Part shown: piece by piece, positions 35,769 to 36,849 of the stretch
Position numbering within the stretch: the first letter of the stretch is position 1
Layout: each line of letters starts with the position of its first letter
From: an uncultured Pseudomonadales bacterium
GTDB taxonomy: Bacteria; Patescibacteriota; Microgenomatia; UBA1400; UBA12108
Assembly: GCA_964349305.1 (NCBI GenBank)
Contig: CAYGFS010000001.1
Location: forward strand, 15,209-79,208
Direction of reading: 5' to 3'
Length of the DNA stretch: 64,000 bases
The notes under the pieces: model-generated
The model's database searches: none
What the model was told of the DNA's origin: nothing
The model's input: only the letters and a program-made list of their open reading frames with translations
Position numbers and translations under genes: made by a program

Positions 35769-36849
35769 AGACCTCCAAGATATTTTTTGCGGTTGATTCC
35801 CAGGTAAATTGACTGGCTTGCTTGAGCCCACGAACTTTGAGAGTGGCATGGCTGGCAAGGGCGGTGGTGATGCCTAGTCTGATAGAGTCGATGTCGAGTG
35901 GATTGACGAGAATAGCGGCTTCGCCCGCAATTTCGGGGAGAGATGAGAGACTCGAGGTGACGACCGGCGTACCACAGGCCATGGCTTCGAGCACGGGGAA
36001 ACCAAAGCCTTCATAAAGTGAGGGGAAAGCAAAGACACTGGCGCCGCTATAGAGCCCGGGTAAGTCAGACTCGGGGACAAAACCTAACGCAATCACACCC
36101 GGTGTGTGGGAGCCCTTCACACCGGGTGTGTCGGGTACACCCCAGCCGTGCTTGCCCACAATGACAAGCGGCAGCTCCTGACCTTTGGCGGCTTCGGCTA
36201 AACGGTCAATATTTTTGCGAGGTTCTTGAGTACCTAATGAGAGAATATATTTTTCTGGTAACTTATATTTAGTTTTCACTCGATCTATTTCTTCCTTCGA
36301 TTGAGACAAATATTGTGGAGATACACCTGGATAAACTACGTCAATGCGCAGCGGTGAGAGATTGTATATTTCCACTAGATCATTTTTTGTACTCATTGAA
36401 TCTGCGATAATATGAGTGTCGGAACTGACAATCTTTTTGAGCCGTCTAGTTTGGGTTCCCAGGATGAGCGAGTCAACGGTCTCGGGATATTTGACAAATA
36501 CTAGGTCGTGAACGGTCGTGACAATTTTGGCTTTGGCACTGGGCTGGCTCCAATCCGATGCGTGTACCAAATCGACCGCGCCGGTTAAGAGCTCAAACGG
36601 AATCGAGGTATCGTTTAAGGCATAACCGGCTAGTTTAGGCGGAAGCGGGAAAATCTTCCAGGTAGCTTTGTCCCAGGGTGAGGTCTGACTGAGCCGCGTA
36701 AAAAATGCACGCTGGCGGAGCGTGCCGGCATAGAGCACAAATTCGTGAGGTGAATTTGAGTTTAATAATGCTTCGGTTAAACCCTTCACATATCTGGCTA
36801 CCCCAGTCCCTTCGTAACACATCTGAGAAACGTCGATCGCGATTTTCAT
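35743..36849 (-). CDS. glycosyltransferase family 4 (carries family-A palindromic insertion encoding [12 protein letters not shown])
   Basis: [21 protein letters not shown]... C-terminal [22 protein letters not shown]. Confidence 0.8.
   Translation of the reverse strand: [368 protein letters not shown]
36094..36130. repeat. family-A in-frame palindromic element copy A2 (CACACCCGGTGTG-TGGGAGCCCTT-CACACCGGGTGTG)
   Basis: Same loop as copy A1 at 10952-10988. Both 13-bp arms differ from A1 at two positions yet remain perfectly complementary. Coordinates +/-2. Confidence 0.75.

Follow-up and report, generated by a model that had tools for sequence, protein, structure and literature searches.

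We analysed 64,000 nucleotides of contig CAYGFS010000001.1 (positions 15,209 to 79,208, assembly GCA_964349305.1; the window), assigned to the Microgenomatia lineage UBA1400. Two genes in the window, one for a GT4-family glycosyltransferase and one for a MurC-like UDP-N-acetylmuramate--alanine ligase, each hold one copy of a 37-nt palindromic element that consists of two 13-nt arms around an 11-nt loop (Table 1). Both copies lie in minus-strand open reading frames (ORFs), share a reading frame and encode a 12-residue peptide. On the plus strand, the GT4 copy reads CACACCCGGTGTG TGGGAGCCCTT CACACCGGGTGTG and the MurC copy reads CACTCCCGGAGTG TGGGAGCCCTT CACTCCGGGAGTG. The arms are 100% complementary in both, and the loop is identical. 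The first-pass annotation of this DNA had called the GT4 palindrome a second copy of the one in MurC. Its coordinates for both copies proved exact, with a 13-bp stem and an 11-nt loop.

A degenerate 37-mer pattern (≤3 mismatches) recovered only these two sites in the window against 0.00 expected (100 shuffles), so chance does not explain them. The 13-mer arm occurred four times against 0.26 expected. A covariance model of the family found no copy in the window besides those in GT4 and MurC. No Rfam 15 covariance model matched around the element at E ≤ 1, and none reached its gathering score in the whole window. The predicted folding energy of the hairpin was −28 to −33 kcal/mol as RNA and ~ −17.6 kcal/mol as DNA (z −4.0 to −4.6). 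An assembly or sequencing artefact, or a chance palindrome, has a negligible probability: the origin of the sequences in metagenome assemblies is all that speaks for it, whereas the chance expectation is nil and the element lies at orthologous sites, with intact ORFs, in independent NCBI, ENA, JGI and Logan assemblies.

The element occupies a shortened connector in GT4 and MurC

The GT4 host matched PF13439 (Glyco_transf_4, N-domain; 47.7 bits) and PF00534 (Glycos_transf_1, C-domain; 89.5 bits), both above gathering scores. Strands and helices alternate in its AlphaFold model, in keeping with a GT4 enzyme of the two-Rossmann GT-B type. We compared the protein with its 120 best homologs, which form a Microgenomates-type clade (source names such as 'Microgenomates group bacterium'). 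The gene order PMT_2-GT4-GT4-NUDIX is kept among them, which identifies them as orthologs.

We observed the full element in 17 of the 120 orthologs (366-375 aa) and a single TPGV in eight (360-362 aa). At the same position, 55 orthologs read a short GWG-DKTQ-TLGF; these proteins are mostly 356 aa long, 12 residues shorter than the host. The remaining 40 had other short sequences. The element had been annotated as an insertion in GT4, a reading that a KGSHTPG-like segment in homologs generally would have contradicted; the 55 short forms uphold the insertion. Three of 120 MurC orthologs carried the element, and most read AY-PKPVTDIKSLT-LAEA, again 12 residues shorter.

The AlphaFold model of the GT4 host, built on 50 orthologs, had a mean predicted local distance difference test (pLDDT) score of 89.6. 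Its sole segment below 50 was residues 234-247, a connector from strand 228-231 to strand 252-256 of the C-terminal Rossmann domain. The model thus favours the loop of this domain that the first-pass annotation had presumed, and the element probably adds a flexible, Gly/Pro-rich loop of 12 residues there.

At the element position, canonical GT4s, including the neighbouring paralog at 34647..35858 (GKIGWLADDTLDVIKNSPEFKDIVLTGYV), contain a native helix segment about as long as the element, and so does canonical MurC (PDB 9ir5, '...HPDNPEFAEARSQGLP...'). In the candidate phyla radiation (CPR), the orthologs of both proteins no longer have that helix, and the connector, now shortened, holds the element. 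Alignment with the paralog, which had been proposed as a check, therefore gives a divided answer: the element is an insertion relative to close orthologs, but the segment that holds it is not longer than in canonical GT4s.

Filled and empty states interleave among close relatives in the GT4 gene tree. Filled P0002 and empty P0005 were sisters (99.7% bootstrap, 93% amino-acid identity), as were filled P0003 and empty P0006 (96% bootstrap). A Fitch count on the neighbour-joining tree gave 15 gains or losses; we take this number as no more than an upper bound and rely on the sister pairs with bootstrap support. One further ortholog, P0043, has a 21-nt quasi-palindrome, CCTGCCTCGCGGCAAGGCGGG, at the GT4 site.

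The repeated unit is a DNA hairpin found in unrelated genes

Scanning one genome per species with the exact pattern recovered 21 copies on 19 contig stretches from six metagenome-assembled genomes (MAGs), with eight copies in one 'Microgenomates group' MAG. Metagenomes contributed 68 further stretches. The scan of viral contigs gave no element matches and hence no sign of a phage origin. Four metagenome matches (L029, L052, L057 and L076; L numbers denote loci) were excluded as protein-motif coincidences, being high-GC, rhodanese-like genes by appearance that read 'EPRPGLKGGHIPG...' or 'RPGLKGGHIPG'. After their removal, 91 unique copies remained at at least 45 distinct host sites, so that the repeat family postulated from the two window copies extends well beyond them.

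All 91 copies were spanned by ORFs of identifiable proteins and none was intergenic; three short ORFs that span the element are cut by contig ends. By Pfam, the hosts include ribonucleotide reductase (RNR; three sites), ComEC (two), TruB, IF-2, RadA (two), further GT4s, transketolase, Fic, DprA, DnaE, LepA, MerR-type regulators, ATP-dependent DNA ligase (two), DinB, ClpB, PMT-type glycosyltransferases, Obg, an ABC ATPase, an FtsX/MacB permease, LeuRS and MurC. Two element-bearing MAGs (CAYFZD01 and CAZGNX01; loci L001, L003, L004, L009, L014, L017 and L019) bear the title 'uncultured Pseudomonadales bacterium'. This label looks wrong, since both their strong GC skew and their genes (for example IF-2, DnaE and LepA with CPR-type inserts) match Microgenomates contigs.

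Five reading frames were in use. The element was read as TPGVKGxHTPGV in 55 copies and as HTRCEGLPHTGC in six; in reverse orientation it was read as TPGVWEPFTPGV in five, HTRCVGALHTGC in 22 and HPVCGSPSHRVC in three. The sixth frame, the only one with a stop codon (TGA), was used by none of the 91. This usage shows that the repeated unit is DNA and not a protein motif, and the avoidance of the stop frame argues that ribosomes read through the element.

The copies fell into two main subfamilies, with arms CACACCCGGTGTG (57 copies, including GT4) and arms CACTCCCGGAGTG (33 copies, including MurC). The loop varied at three positions (CTC, CGC, TGC and others). The GT4 and MurC copies differ at four nucleotides, all in the stems, pairwise compensatory and synonymous at third codon positions (ACA/ACT, GGT/GGA). 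Because these are the diagnostic differences between the subfamilies, they reflect an old subfamily divergence. The identical loop and compensatory arms noted in the first pass are thus real, but the compensation did not take place at this site.

Flanking bases were semi-conserved (consensus G..CCCnA[37]TttG), with G at −8, CCC at −5 to −3, A/T at −1, T at +38 and G at +41, so that the conserved span is ~46-51 nt. The semi-conservation held in all frame classes and is therefore a property of the element or its target rather than of codons. Position-by-position flank composition of the 91 copies revealed no GTAG or CGTC tag. We rejected a stem longer than 13 bp: only 26 of 45 sites are paired at −1/+38, and positions farther out are unpaired. 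Among 204 arms in 607 kb, only one (L067) was truly solo, and its ortholog L081 has a full copy there. A lone 13-nt arm, as in an uptake sequence, was therefore rejected as the unit; since arms almost never occur alone, the unit is the hairpin.

Stem pairing is maintained

Across 61 distinct copies, 99.2% of stem cells were paired, and five of the 13 pairs showed changes on both sides. The covariation score of these copies was matched by none of 500 shuffles, and the signal was gone when the 3' partner was slid by 1-3 columns. The split into subfamilies makes up much of this signal, but independent cases exist. L016 has G-C at pair 4/34, and L001 and L058 have T-A at pair 3/35. The arms of L013 are no longer self-palindromic and are still mutually complementary; altered central or outer pairs are compensated in L035, L082 and L027.

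The GT4 ortholog L023 was found via its protein and not via the pattern. Its arms, CATACCAGGTTTG and CAAACCTGGTATG, are perfectly complementary after three compensated changes, and its peptide now reads IPGL...KPGM. The hairpin is thus kept at the peptide's expense, though not in every copy: decaying ones were observed at the GT4 site (L021, L094) and at the LeuRS site (L032, L012). Conservation of four-fold sites was 92% in the element and 39% in the flanks; we rejected this comparison as evidence because of exact-pattern ascertainment. Template switching at quasi-palindromes is a known mutational process (PMC7202029). The perfect hairpin may be kept by selection or by hairpin-templated (quasi-palindrome template-switch) correction, and the data fit both.

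These observations bear on whether TPGVKGxHTPGV is a selected peptide module and the DNA palindrome a by-product of self-complementary T-P-G-V codons. ACN CCN GGN GTN is inherently self-complementary, and this peptide is the commonest reading (55/91). Against it, 36 of the 91 copies lie in four other frames or orientations and encode unrelated peptides, and this frame usage effectively refutes a peptide module. Moreover, third codon positions co-vary so as to preserve pairing, L023 altered the peptide and kept the stem, the host proteins are functionally unrelated, and the segment is predicted to be disordered. We regard a peptide module as very improbable.

Filled and empty alleles differ by replaced segments

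In the closest GT4 pair (90% nucleotide identity over the gene), the filled allele reads GTACCCGA[37]TTTGGA (51 nt) and the empty allele GACAAAACCCAAACG (15 nt), and the two are dissimilar. All empty GT4 alleles keep 'DKTQ'. Filled and empty ortholog pairs are also known beyond GT4 and MurC. At one RNR site, an approximately clean +39-nt insertion (the 37-nt core plus TT) lies between A and GGGG. Further sites yielded +42. Net inserted lengths were always multiples of three (+36, +39 or +42), as expected under selection for frame. At 11 of 13 positions, the empty GT4 site CCCAAACACTGGG matches the element's loop end plus arm 2 (CCCACACACCGGG), a match that may reflect homology-assisted insertion or coincidence. 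Other empty sites have no likeness to loop end plus arm 2.

Orthologous sites also differed in what they held. In TruB orthologs, the element lies at identical nucleotides in opposite orientations (ATC ACT CCC GGA GTG TGG GAG CCC TTC ACT... versus ATC ACA CCC GGT GTG AAG GGC TCC CAC ACA...), a switch that could be either an inversion of the loop between the inverted arms or a re-insertion. At a second GT4 site, subfamily, frame and orientation vary by genome, and a leftover arm stands beside a newer copy.

One explanation of the patchy distribution is a single ancient insertion per gene, followed by homologous recombination (allele exchange after transformation) and repeated loss, with mobility that has ended or never existed. 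Filled GT4 alleles do share flanks (GTACCCGAC in the window and in L021), DKTQ is common to the empty ones, the two states are interleaved in the gene tree, and all GT4 copies belong to one subfamily. Such a history cannot explain one 37-mer in at least 45 unrelated genes, five frames and both orientations, nor the orthologous sites with different subfamilies, frames or orientations at the second GT4 site and in TruB. The orthologs are also only 60-90% identical and would be a poor substrate for homologous exchange. We consider this explanation improbable.

The element itself also changes in length and is invaded by other palindromes. In L035 (7797-7857), an arm-loop-arm-loop-arm tandem with a 24-nt period is read as HSRSEGLPHSRSEGLPHSGS in an Ig-like-domain protein. 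This tandem is an in-frame gain of a 24-nt unit, a process of which solo arms represent the reverse. The loop also harbours other mini-palindromes, alone or together and always directly after CCCA. A perfect 18-nt palindrome, CCTGCCTGCGCAGGCAGG (LPAQAG), lies in the loops of L054, L080, L027 and L071. The 21-nt quasi-palindrome seen in P0043 (LPRGKAG) is nested in L055 (2824-2894), L081 (614-684) and L071 (584-672), and in L071 it stands in tandem with the 18-mer. The 18-mer is dispersed as well, with 11 copies in the loci and one in the window, where a GT2-like protein contains it in frame (LPAQAG).

Orientation follows the chromosome strand

Relative to transcription, 61 copies lay in the same and 30 in the opposite orientation, which argues against a loop-specific RNA function. 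Relative to the chromosome, the strand with the AAGGG loop was the C-rich strand of the contig in 38 of 46 independent sites (p ~1e-5, binomial). Where the coding strand was C-rich, the orientation was 'same' in 23 of 23 sites, and where it was G-rich, 'opposite' in 15 of 23 (p ~2e-6, Fisher). The absolute GC skew was 0.2-0.36 on many element-bearing contigs.

UBA1400 Microgenomates have an unusual strand disparity and GC skew over whole chromosomes (PMC7143001). The plus strand of the window had a positive GC skew throughout (0.03-0.13 per 4 kb), and long ORFs covered ~53 kb of its minus strand versus ~6 kb of its plus strand, so that the coding strand is C-rich. This asymmetry matches that of UBA1400 Microgenomates (PMC7143001). 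Both window copies follow the strand rule, the plus strand being G-rich. The rule is as expected of a mechanism that acts on one strand at the replication fork, a link that we infer.

A functional, strand-oriented chromosomal signal would be expected to show such a rule too. This could be a site for protein binding or chromosome architecture, or a DNA-uptake-type sequence of these competence-proficient bacteria, accumulated by biased recombination or selection and tolerated in its coding context. Every 13-nt arm is dyad-symmetric with a CCSGG core, a form typical of binding sites for dimeric proteins. Further repeat families of the window have the design of two palindromic arms as well, the replacement of a segment between filled and empty alleles is what recombination would leave, and the hosts encode ComEC and DprA. 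But the density is low, at two copies per 64 kb, and only one arm among the 204 is solo. The sites are insertions of 12-17 residues and not motifs built by point mutation, many orthologs are without the element, and copies decay. A chromosomal signal is therefore an unlikely explanation, though slightly more probable than a single ancient insertion per gene.

Other repeats in the window

The window holds further repeats (Table 1). A second palindromic family has arms AAGGTCAGACCTT and AAGGTCTGACCTT with 39 nt between them; its copy supplies the C-terminal ~20 residues of MurC (...RSDLEGSAQPDHNQSGGKV*) and stops just short of the start of murB. This C-terminal extension was present in seven of 120 MurC orthologs, and related 'GRSDP/SAQP' segments lie in frame in LepA (L013) and Fic (L003). 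A related element, with arms AAGGACTGTCCTT and AAGGACAGTCCTT and 41 nt between them, lies immediately downstream of a sigma-70-like TTGACA...TATAAT on the gene-poor plus strand. This element may be a copy that is not translated, or else a 5' leader or small RNA.

A third family, CCTGCAGGGCCTGGCCCTG(A/C)AGG, consists of two CCTGCAGG palindromes; MurC and a different GT4-like protein (41866..42933) each contain it in frame, with the reading LQGQALQ. Among MurC orthologs, 34 of 120 had an LQG[QLEV][AT]L-like segment, which is missing from a shorter subgroup. AT-rich direct repeats (AATCATAAATTCTCAAATTCTCAAAT) lie near minus-strand gene starts and may be a shared promoter or leader motif. Imperfect TAGA-rich repeats (TAGAATCTAGACTCCAGACTTTAG / AAGACGCTAGATGCTAGACGCTAGT) are partly intergenic and partly within ORFs. 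Some MurC orthologs have an insertion, 'SLASTSDSESRR', that might derive from a repeat of the TAGA-rich type.

Table 1. Positions in the window of the palindromic element, its host genes and other repeats.
Feature	Position	Strand	Remarks
37-nt element core (arm, loop, arm) in GT4	36094..36130	-	Minus strand, element orientation: CACACCCGGTGTG AAGGGCTCCCA CACACCGGGTGTG; 12 residues, GT4 residues 241-252
Stem arm CACACCCGGTGTG	36094..36106	+ (reading)	Self-palindromic around a central C; CCSGG core
11-nt loop TGGGAGCCCTT	36107..36117	+ (reading)	Loop of the MurC copy identical
Stem arm CACACCGGGTGTG	36118..36130		Perfect complement of 36094-36106
Covariance-model match including semi-conserved flanks	36089..36138	-	71.3 bits, E=3.7e-22; here GTACCCGA[37]ATTGC
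Host gene, GT4-family glycosyltransferase	35743..36849	-	368 aa
Sister copy, other subfamily, arms CACTCCCGGAGTG	10952..10988	-	In MurC, residues 77-88, frame as in GT4
Sister-copy host, MurC-like UDP-N-acetylmuramate--alanine ligase	9815..11215	-	
18-nt palindrome CCTGCCTGCGCAGGCAGG	41416-41433		In the GT2-like protein gene (41022..41882)
Second palindromic family	9811-9875		Arms AAGGTCAGACCTT / AAGGTCTGACCTT
Element related to the second family	7417-7489		Arms AAGGACTGTCCTT / AAGGACAGTCCTT
Sigma-70-like TTGACA...TATAAT	~7381-7400	+	
Third family, two copies	10492-10514, 42573-42595		CCTGCAGGGCCTGGCCCTG(A/C)AGG
AT-rich direct repeats	11940-11983, 25119-25162, 26603-26646, 31800-31843		AATCATAAATTCTCAAATTCTCAAAT
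TAGA-rich imperfect repeats	24066-24096, 28166-28196, 42941-42971, 4073-4097, 39276-39300		TAGAATCTAGACTCCAGACTTTAG / AAGACGCTAGATGCTAGACGCTAGT

Discussion

Our data suggest, with a probability of roughly 0.7, that the palindrome in GT4 belongs to a family of selfish, non-autonomous hairpin DNA elements of Microgenomates (CPR) and is a translated survivor of its spread. No host function need be assumed for this copy. The element would spread at the DNA level, mobilised in trans and most likely as a single-stranded hairpin that a strand-specific enzyme recognises. The HUH/Y1 class (RAYT/IS200-like) is a conceivable but doubtful candidate for this enzyme. Survivors would be those insertions that add a multiple of 3 nt, avoid the stop frame and fall in tolerant surface connectors, and the mRNA would simply be translated through them. 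Once in place, the element may shrink or grow through slippage by a 24-nt arm-plus-loop unit, invert its loop, take up other mini-palindromes, or decay.

Several observations weigh against a mobile hairpin. No clean junction was seen between empty and filled alleles: ~51 nt replace ~15 unrelated nt in the closest GT4 pair, and the appearance of a simple +39-nt insertion is confined to one site. Target-site duplications were not found in the flanks or in comparisons of filled and empty alleles. Copies inside one MAG differ in subfamily and loop, with no sign of a recent burst. The strand bias could stem from selection and not from the insertion mechanism. Ascertainment by the exact pattern explains part of the high nucleotide conservation of the copies, and of the three other GT4 orthologs whose DNA was located by protein, L023 has a perfect stem, like the window copy, and the remaining two are partly or largely decayed. 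Searches with YafM, IS200 and IS608 TnpA/RAYT sequences (tblastn) gave no match at E < 0.3 in 660 kb of genome fragments, a weak negative.

The other repeats point to a broader proposal, which we put forward tentatively and at somewhat less than even odds. Microgenomates would harbour several previously undescribed families of ultra-short (18-50 nt) palindromic elements that colonise essential genes in frame, nest within one another and are strand-oriented. Such families would imply an insertion or copying machinery specific for hairpins or single-stranded DNA, and would be a general source of extra loops in CPR proteins. Full-text searches of the literature on CPR, Patescibacteria and Microgenomates found no description of such elements.

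Microgenomates genomes are usually described as nearly free of mobile DNA. A related genome is stated to lack mobile elements (PMC7143001). If the hairpin is a selfish element, it would add to Rickettsia palindromic elements (RPEs) a second example of this kind, independent of the first and more extreme, with selfish hairpin DNA present as translated loops in essential genes of a phylum with ~1-Mb genomes thought to be without mobile elements. Some of the insertions and differences in length that are unexplained in CPR proteins would be accounted for. Such segments would then be DNA parasites and not functional motifs, which matters for annotation, structure prediction and phylogenetic alignments. 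The strand-oriented distribution under whole-chromosome G/C asymmetry would serve as a marker of replication direction and a handle on the mobilising enzyme. The hosts would also provide a natural experiment on the tolerance of MurC, DnaE, IF2 and RNR to loop insertions.

Among known systems, miniature inverted-repeat transposable elements, or MITEs, are likewise small, non-autonomous repeats with inverted-repeat ends, and at times form in-frame fusions (PMC10969869). They measure 70-300 bp, have terminal inverted repeats that match a parent insertion sequence (IS), and generate target-site duplications; we saw none of these features in the element, which is also too short.

In mitochondria, GC clusters are occasionally found in frame in a coding gene (VAR1) and tend to insert into one another, and the related 'byps' are bypassed by the ribosome in translation. 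Like the element, these clusters of yeast and other fungi are short, GC-rich mobile hairpins that multiply in a compact genome (PMC4478555). They are organellar, eukaryotic and mostly intergenic, whereas frame use and stop avoidance in the element argue for ordinary read-through.

Palindromic amphipathic repeat coding elements (PARCELs) have longer units in tandem that build whole repeat proteins, whereas our element is a single dispersed insertion in enzymes. The likeness lies in palindromic coding repeats that are translatable in either orientation (PMC2996958).

Repetitive extragenic palindromic (REP) sequences and REPINs, whose REP-associated tyrosine transposase (RAYT) is an IS200/IS605-type Y1 HUH enzyme, are also multi-copy stem-loops of 20-40 nt; bases adjoining the stem are semi-conserved, and the target is not duplicated. 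The element's 13-bp stem, 11-nt loop and repetition (up to eight copies in one fragmentary MAG) agree with a REP, and its strand-specific orientation fits a biology of single-stranded DNA. REPs have also been reported inside genes, often genes for replication and repair (PMC3733652; PMC3116915). REPs are, however, overwhelmingly extragenic, carry a GTAG/CGTC tag and often form inverted pairs (REPINs) near a RAYT gene. In contrast, the element was intragenic in 91 of 91 copies, untagged and present as single hairpins, with no RAYT match in the 660 kb.

RPEs offer a close parallel in lifestyle: both are dispersed palindromes that lie in frame in unrelated housekeeping genes of a reduced genome and are translated and compatible with the protein fold (PMC10969869; PMC3733652). 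TruB is a host in both, and a transposase is known for neither (PMC10969869; PMC3733652). RPEs are ~100-150 bp long, occur in Alphaproteobacteria and have a reported CGTC tag at one end (PMC10969869; PMC3733652). The element differs in its 37-nt core, the lack of a CGTC/GTAG tag, its occurrence in Microgenomates and its chromosome-strand bias. Its copies also use five frames and either orientation, and palindromes of 18-21 nt have invaded it in turn. Given length and phylum, homology to RPEs is unlikely. Overall, the element works like RPEs and intragenic REPs and, by its length, tag, location and phylum, is a member of neither.

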